A program made the position numbers and the translations under genes. Shown here piece after piece: positions 9,895 to 20,080 of a DNA stretch of 64,000 bases; positions within the stretch are counted from its first letter, which is position 1; the number at the start of each line of letters is the position of its first letter. Below the pieces are notes generated by a model. That model ran no database searches and was not told the DNA's origin. It saw nothing but the letters and a program-made list of their open reading frames with translations. The DNA lies in assembly GCA_041697335.1 (NCBI GenBank), contig JBGUGD010000010.1, positions 28,883 to 92,882 on the forward strand, written 5' to 3'. This DNA comes from Vampirovibrionaceae bacterium NZW_1234. GTDB taxonomy: Bacteria > Cyanobacteriota > Vampirovibrionia > Vampirovibrionales > JAGQHJ01.

Positions 9895-11736
9895 ATGATT
9901 CGAGGGGTATCGACAGGGTATGACAATGAGCAACTTCAACAGGCCTTAGGGGGCCGCTTTCCTCGTGGGACCTTTGTCCCGATGCAAGGGCCCATGGATA
10001 CCGTTGAGATTGGACAATCAGGTCGTCCCAAGCGCAGTTTCAGCTTTATCGGCGCTGCCGTCAACTTTGTGAAAGGCGCGGTGGTCGATACCATTTCCGG
10101 GATGTTCAGCATGAAAGGCCTCTTAACCATGGCCGGATCGGCTGCCTTGATTTGGGCCACCGGCGGCGCGGCATTGATTCCGTTAGCCGCATTGGGGGCC
10201 GGTATGGGAGCGTTCCAGGTTGTGAAGGGATCCTTGAATGCCGCCAGTGCCTTATCCCAAGGGGACGGTGAAGCGGCTGAAAATGCTTTCCGCGGGATTG
10301 GTTCCGGGACTTTCACCGCCGTTGCCAGCTTACTGGGTGCTCGTGCCGCTTATCGTAATGGGGTGGTAAAAACGGGAACCCAGGTCAAGGGTGGTAAAGT
10401 GGAACTGGCCAGCGATGTGGTCAAAGGCGAAGGTTGGTTTGGAGGCTTTAAAGGCACCGTTAAACAGATGTACCGTGATCTCAGTGGCCAGTCCCGAGCC
10501 GTCACTACGAATAAAAGTGGGGCACCCGTATTAGACAATAACAAGAACCTGCTCAATATGGGCTGGGATAGCATGAAGGGCAAGTGGGACAGTCTGACCG
10601 GCACCTTCCAGAAAAACGGATTGCAAGGGGTCAAAGACAATGTCACTCGCATGGTTCGCGGCAAGGATGCGGCTGGAAAAACGAAAGCCAAGCCGGGTGA
10701 ACAGAAGTTATCCAAAGCCGAAGAAAGCTTGCAGCAATCTCGTACGGCCTTACAAGAGAAGCGAGCTCGGGTAGCTGAGCAGGTTCAAAAAGAAACGGCC
10801 GGGAAAAAATCCGGATCGACTACAGAATCGGCAAAAGAGAGCGCAGCCCAGGCTCGCCAAACTGCGGCTCAACGTGCGGTGAAAGAACAGCAACTCAAGG
10901 CGGCTCAGGAACGGGCCAATACGTTAAACCAGAAATACACCGAAGTACGCGGGAAATTGAAGGTTCTTGAATCCAAACGCCAGGCTTTGGCCGAAAATAT
11001 TCGGGCCGCCCAGGTCGAGCGCCAGAACCTGATGGCTCGTCGCAGTGCCGGGGAAAAACTTTCTTCGCAAGATTCTGCCAAGCTCTCTGAATTAAACCGC
11101 TTTGTGGCTGAGAAATCCGGGGAGTTTGCCAAGATGTCCCGTGAGTCGGCCAGTTTGAGTCGTCAACTTTCGGGGGATAAAGCCTCTGGCGGCCAGAAGA
11201 TCGGCATTAACGAAGATCTGCGTCAAGCCCGCCAGACCTTGTCTGAGCGTGAAGCGGCCTTGAAACGGTCTGAGCGTTCACCAATAGAGGTTGAGGTGGA
11301 CAAGCGCCTGGTCAAGGACCTGGAAGCTGTGAAAGCTCAAGAGGCGGCTGTCACGAAAATGCGGCTTGAGATGCGTCGCAAGGATCCGACCACGGTCACC
11401 TTTAAGCGGGAAATGGCTGAACTCAACAAGACACGCCTACCGTTGAAAAAAGAAGTTGCTGAGCTACAAGCCAACATCGATAAACTGAAATACAATCTGG
11501 ATGCCGACTCCCAGTTTGTCCTTCAGCAAATGAACCAGCAATTGGCTCAGCGTCAAGCCCAGTTGTCGGTCTTGAATGAAAATATGGCCTCCATTGTCAA
11601 CAATGCCCGGGCATCCTTTAATCCCAGCATGATGCGCTCAACCCGTTTCTGGCTCAACGGCCAGCTACAAACCGGCGGCATGCAGATCTACTTGACCCGA
11701 GCCAACCAGGCCGGTAATACGGATGATGACATGTAG
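9895..11736 (+). CDS. Hypothetical protein: Gly/Ala-rich hydrophobic hairpin region plus long coiled coil
   Basis: 613-aa ORF. LLTMAGSAALIWATGGAALIPLAALGAGMGAF hydrophobic segment. About 300 aa of K/E/Q/R-rich heptads. Confidence 0.85.
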   Translation: MIRGVSTGYDNEQLQQALGGRFPRGTFVPMQGPMDTVEIGQSGRPKRSFSFIGAAVNFVKGAVVDTISGMFSMKGLLTMAGSAALIWATGGAALIPLAALGAGMGAFQVVKGSLNAASALSQGDGEAAENAFRGIGSGTFTAVASLLGARAAYRNGVVKTGTQVKGGKVELASDVVKGEGWFGGFKGTVKQMYRDLSGQSRAVTTNKSGAPVLDNNKNLLNMGWDSMKGKWDSLTGTFQKNGLQGVKDNVTRMVRGKDAAGKTKAKPGEQKLSKAEESLQQSRTALQEKRARVAEQVQKETAGKKSGSTTESAKESAAQARQTAAQRAVKEQQLKAAQERANTLNQKYTEVRGKLKVLESKRQALAENIRAAQVERQNLMARRSAGEKLSSQDSAKLSELNRFVAEKSGEFAKMSRESASLSRQLSGDKASGGQKIGINEDLRQARQTLSEREAALKRSERSPIEVEVDKRLVKDLEAVKAQEAAVTKMRLEMRRKDPTTVTFKREMAELNKTRLPLKKEVAELQANIDKLKYNLDADSQFVLQQMNQQLAQRQAQLSVLNENMASIVNNARASFNPSMMRSTRFWLNGQLQTGGMQIYLTRANQAGNTDDDM

Positions 11737-11826: not shown

Positions 11827-12429
11827 TTAAAGCGCTGCGGTTTTGCCCAGAGCTTTTTCATAGGCTTCGATTTGAGGCAGGTGGGCTAAGACAAAGGCAA
11901 TGTCATCCAGGCCTTCCAACAAACAGGTCTTACGAAACGCGTTGATTTCAAAGTGATGCTGCTCCTGGTTGGGCAGGGTGACGCACTGTTCTGCCAGGTT
12001 TACGGTAATGGTTTGGCTGGGATCCTGCTCAATGGTCTGGGCCAGGTGCTGAACCACGGCTTCAGGCAAGGCAATGGGCAGGAGAAAGTTCTTGAGCGCA
12101 TTATTATAAAAAATGTCCGCAAAGGACACGGCAATAATGGCGCGAAAGCCAAAGTCTTTCAGGGACCAAGGGGCATGTTCGCGAGAGCTGCCACAGCCGA
12201 AATTGTGCCCGGCAATCAGGATCTGGCTGCCTTGGAAGCGGGTGGAGTCGAACAGTGACTCTGCCTTGATCTGGCCTTGATCGTCATAGCGCCAGTCATA
12301 AAACAATTTGGCGCCCAGGCCCGCTTTGGTGGTGCCGGTTAAAAACCGGGCCGGGATAATTTGATCGGTATCAATATCATCTTTTAAAAACGGCAGGGCC
12401 GTTGCGGTGAGGGTGGTAAAGGCGTTCAT
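11827..12429 (-). CDS. leuD: 3-isopropylmalate dehydratase small subunit
   Basis: DIDTDQIIPARFL, NFGCGSSREHAPW, SFADIFYNN. Confidence 0.98.
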   Translation of the reverse strand: MNAFTTLTATALPFLKDDIDTDQIIPARFLTGTTKAGLGAKLFYDWRYDDQGQIKAESLFDSTRFQGSQILIAGHNFGCGSSREHAPWSLKDFGFRAIIAVSFADIFYNNALKNFLLPIALPEAVVQHLAQTIEQDPSQTITVNLAEQCVTLPNQEQHHFEINAFRKTCLLEGLDDIAFVLAHLPQIEAYEKALGKTAAL

Positions 12430-13844
12430 CAGGCATGAGTCTCCCAGGTACGGATATCAACAAGGCGGCCGGAAATGGCGGCGGCCGCTGCCATGGCCGG
12501 GCTCACCAGAAACGTGCGGCTGCCCTTGCCTTGGCGACCTTTGAAATTTCGGTTGCTGGTGCTGGCACAAGCTTGGCCCGGCGCTACAACATCGCCGTTC
12601 ATGGCAATACACATACTGCATCCCGGCTCTCGCCATTCGCAGCCGGCATCGAGAAAAATTTGGGACAGACCTTCGGCTTCGGCTTGGCGTTTGATTTCTG
12701 CCGAACCGGGTACCACGAGGGCTCGAACGTGAGAGGCCACTCGTTTGTCCGCAAGGACCTCGGCGGCGGCACGTAAATCCTCCATGCGAGAGTTGGTACA
12801 GCTGCCAATAAACACCACATCAATGGGGGTGCCGGCAATGGGATGGCCCGGCTCCAACTTCATGTAGTCCAGAGCGGCCAGAAGCTCTTCCTGTTCTTGC
12901 AGGGTGTTGAAATCGTCTTTTTTGGGCACCATGGCCGAAATCTTCATGGCCATCCCCGGATGGGTCCCATAGGTGACCATCGGTTCGATGTCTTCGGCCT
13001 GAAGGATGACCTGGGTGTCGTATTTTGCCCCGACATCGGTTTTAAGTTCCCGCCAGCGCTGGCAGGCAGTCTCGAAGGCTTCGCCCTGGGGGGCAAAGGG
13101 TTTGTCTTTGAGATAGGCAAAGGTTACTTCATCAGGGGCAACCATGCCAGCCCGGGCACCGGCCTCAATGGACATATTGCACAGTGTCATCCGGCCTTCC
13201 ATGCTGAGGCTGCGGATGGCCGAGCCCGTGTATTCAATGACATGGCCCGTGGCGCCACCCACCCCGATTTTGGAGATGATGTACAAGATGACATCTTTTG
13301 CAGTCACACCCAAGGGTAAGGTGCCTTCAACCCGAATTTCCATGGTCTTGGAGGGGGCCTGAAGCAAGCATTGGCTGGCAAGAACCAGCTCCACCTCACT
13401 GGTGCCGATACCAAAGGCCAGGGCCCCAAAGGCTCCGTGGGTCGAAGTATGGCTGTCGCCACAGACCATGGTCATGCCAGGCTGGGTCAGCCCAAGTTCC
13501 GGGCCAATAACATGGACAATGCCCTGGTGGTTGCTGGCCACGTCAAACAGGGTGATGCCGTGTTTTCGGCAGTTTTCGGCCAGGGTCGCCAACTGGGTCC
13601 GAGCGGCTTCGTCCTCAATGGGCTTGGAACGATCTGTGGTGGGAATGCTGTGGTCCTCAGTGGCGGTGGTCAAATCCGGCCGACGGACGGGAATCCCCCG
13701 AGCGGCAAGGCCGGAAAAGGCTTGTGGCGAAGTGACTTCATGAATTAAATGGCGATCGATATATACGATGGCCGGGCCGCCTTCGGTTTGGTGAACCACG
13801 TGGGCGTCCCAAATTTTTTCGTATAAGGTTTTTGGCGCACTCAT
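12429..13844 (-). CDS. leuC: 3-isopropylmalate dehydratase large subunit
   Basis: [45 protein letters not shown]. Start at MSAPK (13844). Confidence 0.98.
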
Positions 13845-14179
13845 GGTGGGTTGTCTTTCTGTGTTATCAACGTCAAAAAGGCCATTGGGCCAGAAATTCA
13901 ATGGTTATACCCCAGTAAAGAGCAAGGTGCTGATCGCAGCACGACCGGGTTGTTTCTGGCATTGTATCGCAAACCATGGTCTGTGTCCGGCGCGACGTGG
14001 AGGCCGGAGCGGGGCTTGTGACGGTTCAATTCTTAAGATAAGGGGAAAATATTAAGGAAATGTTAATTGTCTGAAACCTTCTGTTTATAGGCTTCTTCAG
14101 GTTTTTGCCCAGGTCCGGTTTAAGGAAAAATTAATAATCTAACACCAAATCTTAAGAAACTGTTTTTATATTAATACAA

Positions 14180-14636
14180 GGGCTAACGAGGCAAAACGAA
14201 AGGACAATAGGGTGGGGCGAATCGCTTGACAGAATTTTAACAATCCAATCATTTCTGAGTCATTGGCTCCCCTGAGAGCCGTGAGTGGCTGAGAAACCGC
14301 ATGAAATAGCTTTTTCTTCCTTCACACACATACACATTCACATTTTCCATTAAATGAACTAGCGAGACCCATAAGCAAGGGCACGTCAATTGGAGAGTGC
14401 CTTCCCTTAGGGGAAGGTCCGGTTTTTTTCCTACCTATCTTAACTAACGAGACCCACAAGCGATTACAAGTTACATTGGAGATTGCCTTCCCCGCAAGGG
14501 GAAGGACAGATTTACTAACCTACATCACACACACACACATTCCTCACATGCGAGGCGATGACAGACATTGGGGACACGTTACAGGGGCGATTTTAAAGCA
14601 GCCGGGCAAGGAATGCCACGGCTGTTTTAAACTTTC
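14180..14636 (+). ncRNA. Candidate structured non-coding RNA with two tandem ~85-nt repeat units
   Basis: No credible ORF. Two units (14357-14417, 14442-14505) share sequence and hairpins. CA-rich tracts and a terminal hairpin at 14592-14631. Boundaries are approximate. Confidence 0.5.
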
Positions 14637-14848
14637 AGACGGGATGTTCAGCAGATCACTTTTAGGCTCACTCACACCCAGCCGGGGCTCCTGCCCAGGG
14701 GCGGGTTGTGTGGCGAGGGTCCTCCGGGTCTGTTTGATAGGATAACACCCAAATCCCCCAAGTCGGTCTGTTTGCTAGCTCATCCTTCTTGTTATGGTGT
14801 CCATGGCACAAAACCGAGAGACAGCGCATTTCAAGGGCGTAACCAGGG

Positions 14849-16294
14849 ATGATGACCGTTTTGGATCGACTTCGACATTGGACCTACGGTGCAGTGAAAC
14901 ACTGCACCGGATCTCGCTATGCTGAGAACCTGCGCTGGTTACATGCCCATCAGTTTGATTCCTACGAGGACAACCTGGCTTGCCAGCAGAAGATGTTGCG
15001 TGATTTACTCATCTTTAGTGCATCTCATATTCCGTATTACCGTCAATTACTGCGTCAAACCGGCGTAGTCGATGGTCAGGGGCGCATTCATCTGGCGCGC
15101 TGGAGTGATCTGCCGGCTTTGACGCGAGGGGATCTGCAGGCCCATTTAAGTCAGCTTCTCAGCGATGATGCGTCCTCACGCCGTCGCATTATTGCCTTGC
15201 CGACCGGAGGCACCACGGCAACCCCGGTGGTACCCAAAGCCGATTTGACTTATTGGGATTGGACTCAGGCCCAGACGTGGCTTTATTTTAGCTGGATGGG
15301 GCTGAATATCGGGATGCCTTATTTTTACTTCTGGGGAGCACCCCAGGACATTGGCGCACAAGGGAAAACCTGGAAGGATAAATTGTGGCTGCAAGGCATC
15401 CAGAACCGCTATGTCCTTAACTGCCGGCGGATGTCACCCGAAATTATGGCGGCCTATATTGACCGGATGAACGCCATGCCCGAGCGCAACCATATGGTGG
15501 CATGTGTCCAGGAACTCTATGAATTGGCCTGTTTCAGCCAGGAACATGGCTACCCGGTTCGCCGGGGAATGGTTGGCATTTGTGTTACGACAGCCGCGCT
15601 GACCGAACCGATGCGCGAGACCATTCAATCGGTTTTCGGTTGCCCTGTCTTCAGCCGCTATGGCAGCCGAGAGGTCGGGGACTTGGCATGTGAATGCCAA
15701 TATCAGGCCGGTCATCACGTCAACCCGTTAACTGCCTTTATAGAGGTGGTTGATGAACAGGGACAGCCGGTTCCTCCCGGCGTGGAGGGACGCATTCTGG
15801 TGACGAACCTCCATAATTACCTGATGCCCCTGATTCGCTACGAGCTTCAAGACCTTGGGATCTGGAGCGAGGCCTGTCGGTGTGCGTGCGGGCGTCAATG
15901 GCCGACCCTGAAAATGATTACCGGACGACTTCATGAGCGCCTGGTTCTGCCCGATGGATCGACCTTCGGCAAGGTCTTTCTCCACTACATCATGGATCCG
16001 TTTCAGAAGCTGCGGGCTTATCAATTTCATCAAGTCAGCCCCACCCAGGTGGAAGTCCATGTGGTGTCACCTATCCGGGACTACTTGCAGGTGTTCAGGC
16101 AGGAGTATCAGGAATCGCTAAAACGGTTTCATCAGGTTACGGAGCAGCAGTTTCAGGTGACGTATAAGCAAGTGGACCTGCTGGAAAAGACCCCTTCGGG
16201 CAAGCAGTTGGTGATCGTCAATCATGTGTTGCCGGCGCGCCAGCCCATGCCTGTGTCTGCAGCGACTGAGGCGGCGGTGCCGGTTTTTTCCTAA
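14849..16294 (+). CDS. Phenylacetate-CoA ligase / CapK-like adenylate-forming protein
   Basis: IPYYR, TGGTT, YGSREVG..ACEC, GRILVTNLHNYLMPLIRY..D, C.CGR, GR, TPSGK. Confidence 0.88.
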   Translation: MMTVLDRLRHWTYGAVKHCTGSRYAENLRWLHAHQFDSYEDNLACQQKMLRDLLIFSASHIPYYRQLLRQTGVVDGQGRIHLARWSDLPALTRGDLQAHLSQLLSDDASSRRRIIALPTGGTTATPVVPKADLTYWDWTQAQTWLYFSWMGLNIGMPYFYFWGAPQDIGAQGKTWKDKLWLQGIQNRYVLNCRRMSPEIMAAYIDRMNAMPERNHMVACVQELYELACFSQEHGYPVRRGMVGICVTTAALTEPMRETIQSVFGCPVFSRYGSREVGDLACECQYQAGHHVNPLTAFIEVVDEQGQPVPPGVEGRILVTNLHNYLMPLIRYELQDLGIWSEACRCACGRQWPTLKMITGRLHERLVLPDGSTFGKVFLHYIMDPFQKLRAYQFHQVSPTQVEVHVVSPIRDYLQVFRQEYQESLKRFHQVTEQQFQVTYKQVDLLEKTPSGKQLVIVNHVLPARQPMPVSAATEAAVPVFS

Positions 16295-17077: not shown

Positions 17078-18835
17078 TTATTTTTTATCTTTATCCTTAT
17101 CCTCGTAGTTCGAGCTGCCGGAGTTACCGGCATTTCCGGAATTTCCAGCGTTACCAGAATTGCCTGCATTTCCGGAGTTTCCAGCGTTATAGTTATTGCC
17201 GCTTCCGGAGTTGCCCGCATTGCCGGAATTACCAGCATTGCCTGAGTTTCCGGAATTTCCAGAATTTCCAGAGTTACCGGCATTGTAATTGTTGCCGGCA
17301 TTCCCGGAGTTACCCGCATTGCCGGAATTACCGGAGTTGCCTGAGTTTCCAGAATTGCCGGAATTGCCGGAATTATAGTTGTTGCCGCTGCCTGTAGCGC
17401 CCGCATTCCCGGCTGCGCCGGCATTGCCAGCGGCACCGGAATTGCCTGTGCCTTGGGTGGAGCCACCGCCGCCACCACCGCCATCGCCGCTGTTAAAACG
17501 GTTGATGGCTGTGTTGTCGAATGAACGCTGAGGCTCTTGATCGGCACCGGAGCTGATGCGGTTGATCAGGGCTCGGCCTTTTTCCTTGTCGGTATCAAAG
17601 GCTTTAACACCTTCCTGCAAGTCTCGGGCATCGAGCTGCAAACCGCCTTTAGAAACATAGTCAATGGCCTTGCGGTATTCTTTCGGGTTATTGACGTAGG
17701 TTTTGTCGTCATCGCTACTGAAGATTTGACGTAGCTGTAACGTACCTCGGTTCAAGGCTTTAGTGACGGCATTTAACGTTGCCACATCCTTGTCGCCAAC
17801 ACCGGGATCATCGGCCAGATCCTGGTTTCCGCTGTTTGCAAGCAGGGTCTTCAGTTTGGCGTTGTTATAGTTGTTGGCCGTGCCTTTTTCATCGGTGCCG
17901 TTTTTGAAGGTGGCAGCCACAGCAGCAAACATGTCACCCGGCTTGGTCAAGTCGACTTGCACGCTTGCCAGTTTGTCTTCCGAATCCCGGGTATTATCGA
18001 CACGGAAGTTACCGATGATCTCACGCGTGTATCCGTCGATAATATTGACACGGGCCGCAGCAACCGCATTGTTGGTGCCCATTTTAATAAAGCGGTCTTT
18101 AATGATGGTTTGGTTGACGTTGCCGTTTTTATCCACGGCACGGGCGTAGTCGTCAACCAGGCGACCATCGGGGGCCGGTAGCTTGGTTAATTCTTTTTCA
18201 TAGTTCACCGCAGGTGGTGTGGTTGTTCCGCCGCCACCACCGCCGGTTGCCGGTGCAGGAGCTGGGTTAGGGGTTCCTGCCGGAGATGGGGTCGGGGTAG
18301 CTGCAGGGGTAGGCGTTGCTGCGGGTGTAGGTGTTGCAGCGGGTGTAGGTGTTGCAGCGGGTGTGGGGGTTGCCGCCGGGCTTGGGGTCGCTGCTGGGCT
18401 GGGCGACGGCGATGGGCCTGCTGCCGGGGAGGGTTTTGCCGCAGGTTTCGGTTTGGACGAGCCAAACAGATCGCCCTGGGTCAGCAAGACCACAAAGAGC
18501 AATAAGAAGATCATGGACGAGGGATCCTGGCCCATCATGCCATTCATCATGCTCATGCCGGAGGACGATGATGGGGCAAAATCATCCGGTGGGCCAAATA
18601 AAGGACTGGATGCGGTGGGCAGATTGGCACCAAATGCGCCACTCAAGAGCCCGGATAAGGGATCGGCCGAGCCGCCAATCAGGGATGAAGCGCCAAAAAG
18701 GGATCCGGCTCCTCCGCCCAAGATACTGCTCAGAGGCGAGGGCGAGCCAAAGCCAGAGCCCTGGAGTCCTGAAGCTCCTCCAAGCAAGCTGGATCCAAAA
18801 ATGGATGACAGCGATGTGCTAAATAAACTGTTCAT
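17078..18835 (-). CDS. Low-complexity Gly/Ser-rich protein with PAATPT linker repeats and a C-terminal (G-N-S/A)n tract
   Basis: GGAGGAG RBS before MNSLF (18835). Repeats use varied synonymous codons. Central globular region. Confidence 0.85.
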   Translation of the reverse strand: MNSLFSTSLSSIFGSSLLGGASGLQGSGFGSPSPLSSILGGGAGSLFGASSLIGGSADPLSGLLSGAFGANLPTASSPLFGPPDDFAPSSSSGMSMMNGMMGQDPSSMIFLLLFVVLLTQGDLFGSSKPKPAAKPSPAAGPSPSPSPAATPSPAATPTPAATPTPAATPTPAATPTPAATPTPSPAGTPNPAPAPATGGGGGGTTTPPAVNYEKELTKLPAPDGRLVDDYARAVDKNGNVNQTIIKDRFIKMGTNNAVAAARVNIIDGYTREIIGNFRVDNTRDSEDKLASVQVDLTKPGDMFAAVAATFKNGTDEKGTANNYNNAKLKTLLANSGNQDLADDPGVGDKDVATLNAVTKALNRGTLQLRQIFSSDDDKTYVNNPKEYRKAIDYVSKGGLQLDARDLQEGVKAFDTDKEKGRALINRISSGADQEPQRSFDNTAINRFNSGDGGGGGGGSTQGTGNSGAAGNAGAAGNAGATGSGNNYNSGNSGNSGNSGNSGNSGNAGNSGNAGNNYNAGNSGNSGNSGNSGNAGNSGNAGNSGSGNNYNAGNSGNAGNSGNAGNSGNAGNSGSSNYEDKDKDKK

Positions 18836-20080
18836 GAGTTCTTCTCCTCCGTCTGACAAGTCTGTCCAACACGATCCAATCTCGAATTGGATGAAAACCA
18901 TATTTCAGTTTTTAGATGTCACATGCGCAGGGCATAGACTTCTCTCTTGTGAGTATAAAAACAATCAATTAAAATTTTTATCCCTTATGTTAAGAAATTG
19001 TTATGTAAGGTTTTCAGGATGGGTAAGAAAACCTTGCTTGGCCTTGGATTCGGCCTGTTCGTTTATTACGGATTACTGGTTTGACCGTGCGGACAATTTG
19101 TCCACACGGTGATTTGGGGCCAATTTTGGAAAAATTCCGTACGGGGAATAAGACCCATTGGGGCGATAGGTGCCATGGGGGTCAAGACGGTGCCACGGCA
19201 CATATCGCTCCAGGTGGAGAAAATACCGAGATTTTTAGGGGCTGTTTTGGGGTGCATTTGTAAAAACCTTTAATTGATTGTGTTTTACTTGTTTTATTCC
19301 ATAAAACCCTTTGTTTTAAACGTTTTTTTATAAAAATTTTGTTAAAATTGCTATGATGGCTTATTTTTTGGATTTTAATGTCTTTAATTTCTGCCATTAA
19401 AAGTTGATTGTGGGTTTTGAGGTGTGTTTTTTCTGTCTGGAAGATTGCTTTTGGTTTTTGTGTTTTTTGGGTGCGGGCAGGTTGGCTGTCTCATGTGGGT
19501 TTTGGCCCCGGCGATATGCTTGGTAACGGCTTTATGGCCTTTGGCTTTCTGAATCTCCTCTTGCCATTCTCGTCTCTCCTCATCAATTTCATTCCCATAA
19601 GAGCAGATGATTTTTAAGGCAGGGTGGTTTTTGATCCGAGAACCATGTTGTTTGGCAAGAAACAGAGATGGCCGGGGGGGGAGGGCGTCACGATGGATGG
19701 GTGCGATTGAGGCCGCTGTCTGATGCGTGGGTTTTCTCGCGGTATTTAGGGTCCATTTTTTTTCAGACGTCCAAAGAATCCATACCCGGGGCGCGCAACA
19801 ATTTGTGAGCGTTGTTTTTGGTGTTTTCTCAATCTCCTCGATTTTGTCAGGCAGGTTCGATCATGGGCCGCGAGGGCGGCCCTTCTGTCATAAAAGCCAC
19901 AGGGAACAGCTGCGAGTGTGGTTATGCGAGAGCGTAAATGTAACGAAGAATTTACAAAGTAACATCGAGAAAAATCAAATTTGTTTTTATAAAAATAAAT
20001 GAATTATTAATACCCTTGGTTTGTCAGGCGTCCATGTTGGCGCGGTTTGTTGAGAGAAGTTACCTTAAGAGAGAAGCACC

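Follow-up and report, generated by a model that had tools for sequence, protein, structure and literature searches.

A predicted tandem-module RNA of a Vampirovibrionaceae bacterium as a candidate sponge for two predicted small RNAs

Results

The locus and its predicted transcript

The window, i.e. the whole stretch of 64,000 nucleotides that was analysed, belongs to a host genome (G000) of 3.70 Mb that is 95% complete. At the locus under study, leuCD on the minus strand and a phenylacetate-CoA-ligase-like gene on the plus strand border a gap of ~1 kb, and the features found in and around it are collected in Table 1. Gene starts and terminators were taken from simple purpose-made callers, not from curated annotation. 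The gap had been described in the original prediction as free of open reading frames; its length of ~1 kb stood, but a TTG-started frame of 89 codons (14476-14745) and several short frames lie inside it. On the minus strand, a terminator-like hairpin was seen at 13927-13942, ~85 nt before leuC, and a Leu-rich leader was not seen there. Farther out in the window, 17078-18901 and 9895-11736 encode long orphan proteins with weak compositional family matches only, one of them bearing Pro-Ala-Ala-Thr and Gly-Asn-Ser-Gly-Asn repeats and the other being coiled-coil.

Table 1. Features of the locus, with positions in the window, and the two partner seeds, with positions elsewhere in the host genome
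Feature	Position	Strand	Remark
leuC, divergent, then leuD	12429-13844	-	context only
Predicted promoter	14139-14179	+	upstream box 14139-14145, AT-rich box 14161-14179
Predicted non-coding RNA	14180-14636	+	~457 nt; short form ending near 14430; from promoter and hairpins
GTG-started frame	14285-14353	+	22 codons; weak ribosome site; probably untranslated
CA tract 1	14322-14340	+	mean unpaired probability 0.77; predicted single-stranded
Predicted antiterminator arm	14341-14349	+	pairs with 14391-14399
Unit 1 core, candidate seed	14357-14376	+	shares best non-self partner with unit 2 core
Decoy site 1	14385-14398	+	bulged match to seeds A and B; overlaps lower arm of terminator 1
Unit 1 hairpin	14389-14429	+	terminator-like, run of 7 U, predicted conditional
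Unit 2 core	14442-14461	+	11 contiguous pairs and 4 more with C29:95527 ribosome site
Decoy site 2	14467-14482	+	16 contiguous pairs, one G-U, with seed A
Unit 2 hairpin	14486-14505	+	8 pairs, GCAA loop, no U run
CA tract 2	14523-14538	+	unpaired probability 0.92; predicted single-stranded
Decoy site 3	14560-14574	+	15 contiguous pairs, one G-U, with seed B
Closing hairpin	14592-14631	+	AGGAA loop; likely 3' end; not called canonical terminator
Phenylacetate-CoA-ligase-like gene	14849-16294	+	downstream, context only
Seed A	C5:235031-235053	+	just before terminator, family-conserved
Seed B	C15:6493-6515	+	23 nt; end of promoter-to-terminator unit

When the gap was compared with the genome by blastn, the segment 14139-14179 was found to recur. 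A two-box weight matrix gave 136 sites genome-wide, among which the one in the gap ranked 5th (33.1 bits), and the best minus-strand promoter score in the gap was −0.7. A long open reading frame started no more than 150 nt downstream of 82 of the 136 sites, against 20 of 136 when the sites were read backwards; since the motif thus points at genes, it is most likely the promoter for one of the sigma factors of this genome. Eight sigma-70 region-2 matches were found, and the sigma factors comprise three RpoD-like members plus FliA-, SigB/F- and ECF-like ones. Twenty of the 136 promoter sites lead to a terminator without a sizeable open reading frame and may represent sRNAs. The genes under this promoter family include many orphan, low-complexity or EF-hand-like ones with shared leader tags.

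From the promoter and the hairpins, we infer that an RNA starts near 14180. Simple scans called the unit 1 hairpin as its sole terminator, leaving the closing hairpin uncalled. When 14180-14432 was folded, however, the pairs of the predicted antiterminator reached probabilities of 0.88–0.98 and the lower stem of the terminator 0.00; because the upstream arm captures this lower stem, read-through to the closing hairpin is predicted. The short GTG-started frame in this region is rich in His and Ile because it crosses CA tract 1.

Tandem units, hairpins and CA tracts

The duplication at the heart of the original prediction was confirmed: two units lie 85 nt apart, and their cores are identical at 18 of 20 positions. 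The units aligned at 76% over 72 nt (E 1e-5 against the genome), the best self-repeat score was 56 against a maximum of 29 in 200 shuffles, and nhmmer found these two copies only in the genome. The cores have been kept at 90% and the spacers have diverged. Public metagenome contigs, which may be of the source sample, cross both units without differing letters, showing that the duplication is not an assembly artefact. Duplication of a coding segment was rejected, since the 85-nt spacing breaks the frame.

The three hairpins were likewise predicted, with a UUAG loop at 14400-14417, a GCAA loop of the GNRA type in unit 2 and the AGGAA loop of the closing hairpin, which had a z-score of −4.75; the whole 457 nt folded with a z-score of −3.9 against 100 shuffles. 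The CA tracts also proved real, (CA)4 runs occurring at 5 overlapping positions against 0.07 expected, a number reached in 0 of 1000 shuffles. By contrast, the proposal that an overlapping alternative stem is maintained by compensatory change in the two units did not survive the comparison, which rests on two sequences only. In the alignment of the units the 5' arms stand five columns apart and are out of register, and each proposed stem, when transferred to the other unit, retains 3 of its 5 pairs. One register gave one double change together with two broken pairs, matched by 259 of 500 shuffles, and the other gave no double change with two broken pairs, matched by all 500. The pair probability of the proposed stem was 0.35 in unit 1 alone and 0.03–0.05 in unit 2 alone, and in the full RNA it was 0.00 and 0.16–0.27, respectively. 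A 9/11 match to the cyanobacterial Yfr1 motif is indeed present at 14539, but its significance is near chance (such a match occurs in 96 of 1000 shuffles and 494 times in the genome), its unpaired probability is 0.42, and the Yfr1 model (RF01116) had no match in the genome.

Distribution of the element

An Rfam 15 scan of 13000-16000 gave 4 matches at E up to 5, far below the gathering score and none of them to a riboswitch, so the expectation that the motif is no existing family held; at five partner loci, tRNA alone passed. Conservation in relatives, proposed along with it as a check, was not borne out by BLAST or a covariance model: no homologue of 14180-14636 was found by blastn among 60 relatives, and the covariance model returned chance matches only over 48 genomes of the order. 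A 13-base pattern matched 21 of 300 other genomes of the class, all in chance contexts and similarly to a reversed control, and pattern scans of public metagenome, genome and viral collections gave 0, 7, 2 and 4 matches, none with the hairpin. In the relative G001, a core-like 10-mer adjoins a CA tract at one place; promoter, site and hairpin are all missing there, and the place was left out of the count. The DNA upstream of leuC in G001, G003 and G004, and that upstream of homologues of the CoA-ligase-like gene in G002 and G003, is unrelated. Since the nearest genomes searched belong to other genera, these results show a narrow range rather than absence. Among public data, the sequence is best represented in metagenomes from hot springs and microbial mats, every one of them from DNA; this habitat reading leaves out runs that contain a small share of it.

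Complementarity to two predicted small RNAs

Seven segments of the RNA were scanned genome-wide for complements, and the middle of unit 2 matched a family of intergenic elements. A ACAUUGGAG-like site is present in each unit, with a third at 14560 (decoy sites 1–3 in Table 1). The target-mimic match of site 2 to the seed of predicted sRNA A comprises 16 pairs, and that of site 3 to the seed of predicted sRNA B comprises 15. On both genome strands, non-self partners with at least 15 pairs numbered 2 for seed A and 1 for seed B, the present RNA supplying one for each; 24 shuffled seeds gave 3 such matches in all. Because the seeds had been found post hoc, all 855 predicted intergenic terminators were tested against 14180-14636. 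The plus strand gave 2 matches, seeds A and B, and the minus strand 0; one match was found for 56 of 714 control tiles and 38 of 1000 shuffles, and two or more for 4 of 714 tiles and 0 of 1000 shuffles, the 4 tiles being palindromic repeats or the promoter motif by inspection. The contrast shrinks at 14 pairs, where two matches are likewise attained by 22 of 714 tiles and 15 of 1000 shuffles, and the two matches are not independent, since seeds A and B share a 9-nt core.

Ranked by free energy, the decoy sites stand 12th to 28th genome-wide, the duplex of site 1 being 19th for seed A and 12th for seed B. Co-folding yielded larger gains than in shuffles for seed A with either unit (0 of 60 in both cases; −17.7 kcal/mol at site 2) and for seed B with unit 1 (1 of 60) and site 3 (−27.0; 2 of 60), but not for the 5' part of the RNA (45 of 60 and 12 of 60). 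In the full fold most of site 1 is base-paired, its unpaired probability being 0.25. No usable start codon follows any of the three sites.

Seed A sits where a gene of 78 codons has its 3' end. It is identical letter for letter in G001, G003 and G004, that is, in three of four family relatives, the fourth being 56% complete, and the terminator is conserved along with it. That gene (C5:234753-235075) adjoins an rpsO-like gene, with csrA 5 kb away, and its pyrimidine tract, seed A, terminator and a promoter variant are kept in three relatives. The unit of seed B runs from promoter to terminator without a sizeable open reading frame; seed B has a 20-nt perfect complement in the leader of another member of the promoter family and is complementary to several gene leaders, including tag-bearing ribosome sites. 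In G001–G004, neither conservation of seed B nor a sponge-like partner of seed A was seen.

The same layout of site, hairpin and terminator recurs in a second family-promoter unit at C21:39767-39450 on the minus strand, whose seed-A-complementary site has duplex rank 3 and is likely a sibling decoy. The gap at C14:32000-32300, minus strand, combines a CA-rich stretch with a site that matches seed A perfectly over 18 pairs and with CU-rich anti-ribosome-site tracts; no family promoter was found nearby.

Possible mRNA targets

Among 5858 prefiltered windows, the non-self site that paired best with the two cores jointly was the ribosome site at C29:95527, directly before the start codon, with which both letters that differ between the cores pair as G-U. 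The gene is an orphan of 321 aa with three paralogues in the host genome and none in G001–G004, and its protein gave no clear family. The four paralogous orphan genes (C29:93150-96490 and C13:143076-143957) are 62–70% identical to the query and have related leader motifs; 12-nt matches to the 3' UTRs of these paralogues were not above chance (50 against 51 in shuffles) and were discarded. Core 1 also has a 14-pair match to a C26 transcript, where core 2 fails. The C26 unit (70552-70176, minus strand), 376 nt long and under a family promoter, contains a frame of 14 codons and precedes a tRNA gene.

CA tract 1 may serve as a seed against GU-rich tracts that precede ribosome sites. The 25 start regions that it matched best include 5 of the promoter family, with 1.1 expected and a maximum of 4 in 60 random 24-mers; the corresponding number for CA tract 2 was 4. 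The best enrichment of a CA window was beaten by 10 of 82 shuffles, and overall complementarity to start regions was unremarkable: it covered 37 genes at 10 nt, a number equalled in 14 of 300 shuffles and in 78 of 422 other gaps. The motif ATGTGTG occurs in 8 of 108 start regions of the promoter family against 6 of 2300 others. Around C8:97719 on the minus strand, a CA-seed and terminator element nearly identical in G003 was seen, a conserved candidate sRNA. Pairing of the cores and CA tracts with start regions of mRNAs, C29:95527 being the best of them, is probable as well, and this claim is weaker than that for the decoy sites.

Discussion

We give about an even chance to the reading that the RNA stands alone and is an sRNA sponge for the predicted sRNAs A and B, working like RosA. 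Transcription would start near 14180 from a promoter of the same family as those of the two predicted sRNAs, and the unit 1 terminator would be read through, with the upstream arm holding its lower stem; were this terminator to fire, the two best sites would not be transcribed from the 14139-14179 promoter. Pairing would begin where site 2 is unpaired, at its 5' end, and would open the base of the hairpin, and the titration of A and B would free mRNAs that have the same tag at their ribosome sites. Helices of 15–16 pairs fit the absence of a found Hfq, for which the 95% complete host genome was searched. Core, decoy site and hairpin would together form one module, of which the duplication made a second copy, and if the cores and CA tracts also target mRNA starts, the RNA would be both a sponge and an sRNA. 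Complementarity as such is compatible with control running in either direction between sponge and target. A wider form of this proposal, which we regard as rather unlikely, is a bifunctional hub RNA in which one seed represses mRNAs and partner-specific decoys in the terminator arms trap two paralogous sRNAs, conditional termination setting the length (one or three sites) and a large sigma-factor regulon being wired by sRNA-sponge pairs in an Hfq-less relative of cyanobacteria.

Several other readings have to be weighed. The RNA may mainly be a multi-seed repressor of mRNAs, whose cores would block ribosome sites of the C29:95527 type, whose CA tracts would pair with GU tracts in co-regulated leaders and which would itself be silenced by A and B. 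The partner shared by the two cores, with their differences tolerated as G-U, the higher frequency of ATGTGTG in family start regions, the CA-seed and terminator element conserved between the host genome and G003, and GU tracts after the promoter at 7 loci of G001 all speak for such a repressor; with the cores not enriched for family genes (1 of the top 25), no relative of C29:95527 in G001–G004 and weak shuffle and other-gap controls, we consider it unlikely, though to be taken seriously. It is improbable that the segment is decayed, recently rearranged untranslated DNA without function, its matches stemming from shared ancestry or common leader motifs. No conservation of it was found outside the host genome, whose intergenic DNA has many low-complexity complementary motifs and leader-like tags on both strands, but the promoter is intact and high-scoring, the fold has a z-score of −3.9, the cores were kept as the spacers diverged, and on the plus strand the letters in which the sites depart from seeds A and B still allow G-U pairing (2 of 2, a weak point). 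There is a slim chance of a long 5' leader of the CoA-ligase-like gene acting as a tandem attenuator, in which sRNA binding or alternative pairing at the bases of the hairpins would control read-through: sites 1 and 2 overlap 5' arms of hairpins, terminator and antiterminator folds compete, and the gene lies on the same strand, 213 nt beyond the closing hairpin. However, unit 2 has no U run, homologous genes have no such leader, the gene itself could use an extended -10-like box at 14790-14798, and since the terminator would be blocked by sRNA binding and by the default fold alike, an attenuator would have no clear switch.

The remaining explanations are less probable still. The original prediction had left the choice between an sRNA, a protein sponge and a tandem cis-regulator; the promoter, the folding and the pairing sites fit an RNA sponge, and the GGA count speaks against a protein sponge. 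With csrA present, one AGGAA hairpin loop and two unpaired CA tracts, titration of CsrA or of a CA-repeat-binding protein is conceivable, but GGA occurred 8 times against 11.5 in shuffles and ANGGA 3 times against 3.4, most GGA lie in stems, and the 15–16 pair matches would be left unexplained, so that its probability is small. It is very unlikely that a His/Ile leader peptide encoded by 14285-14353 stalls the ribosome and thereby controls the unit 1 terminator. Its stop codon adjoins the antiterminator arm and hisD was not found in the 95% complete genome, but the GTG start has a weak, paired ribosome site, a CA repeat encodes His/Thr whichever frame is read, the antiterminator arm lies directly next to the His codons, and the downstream gene is neither related to histidine nor to His/Ile in general. 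The cis-regulator in the form of a tandem ligand-binding riboswitch is hardly to be expected, in spite of the tandem units before a terminator and the GCGAGACC of the core, which we take to resemble the 3' end of yybP-ykoY. No riboswitch family of Rfam was matched at E up to 5, the 5' half of yybP-ykoY is absent upstream, the core region has no stable shared fold, and the lack of homologues disfavours a riboswitch, since riboswitches are usually widespread; likeness to yybP-ykoY and to hammerhead RNAs was rejected, as judged by eye.

The SroC, QrrX and chb-derived sponges are Hfq-dependent, and CsrB and RsmY carry many GGA motifs in loops. By the tests run, 14180-14636 is outside Yfr1, CsrB and all Rfam families. 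Read as an RNA sponge, it shares with SroC, QrrX and the chb-derived sponges, which a review of RNA sponges describes (PMC13501541), the titration of a regulatory sRNA by pairing, whereas these sponges are proteobacterial and no Hfq was found in the present host. With CsrB and RsmY as outlined in the same source (PMC13501541) it has in common that it is a gene-free structured RNA with one GGA loop in a genome that holds csrA, but it shows neither GGA enrichment nor a series of GGA loops.

The closest likeness is to RosA of Bacillus subtilis, which is described as binding RoxS and FsrA through separate G-rich regions (PMC8216469). Like RosA, the present RNA would stand alone, measure a few hundred nt and use different sites among three target-mimic regions to bind two related sRNAs. 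The Hfq of Bacillus subtilis is described as having no global role (PMC8216469), and Hfq was not found here. As reported, RosA is experimentally shown, driven by sigma-A and repressed by CcpA, and has accessible GGGG sites, whereas the present RNA is predicted from sequence; its ACAUUGGAG-like sites arose partly from tandem duplication and lie in hairpin arms. In the cyanobacterial pair, Yfr2 is stated to counteract Yfr1 (PMC6778093), whose motif is given as invariant, unpaired and insufficient alone (PMC2190773). The resemblance lies in CA-rich single-stranded seeds against GU-rich ribosome-site regions and in sRNA-sRNA antagonism via complementary motifs; Yfr1, in the accounts cited, has 54–69 nt and an unpaired 11-mer between two hairpins, whereas the motif here matches at 9/11, is partly paired and is part of a 457-nt RNA. 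Among the matches listed, no study on small or non-coding RNA of Vampirovibrio or Melainabacteria was found, going by titles and the start of abstracts, and the main text of a 202-genome cyanobacterial RNA screen names neither (PMC12873609).

The sponge as a kind is known; its sequence and circuit appear to be new. Because the predicted pairs are long and specific, they can be tested with synthetic RNA even though the organism is uncultured. If the sponge reading is true, the locus would provide the first concrete sRNA-sponge circuit for this lineage, in a genome without a found Hfq, and would show a sponge growing by duplication of a site-plus-hairpin module.
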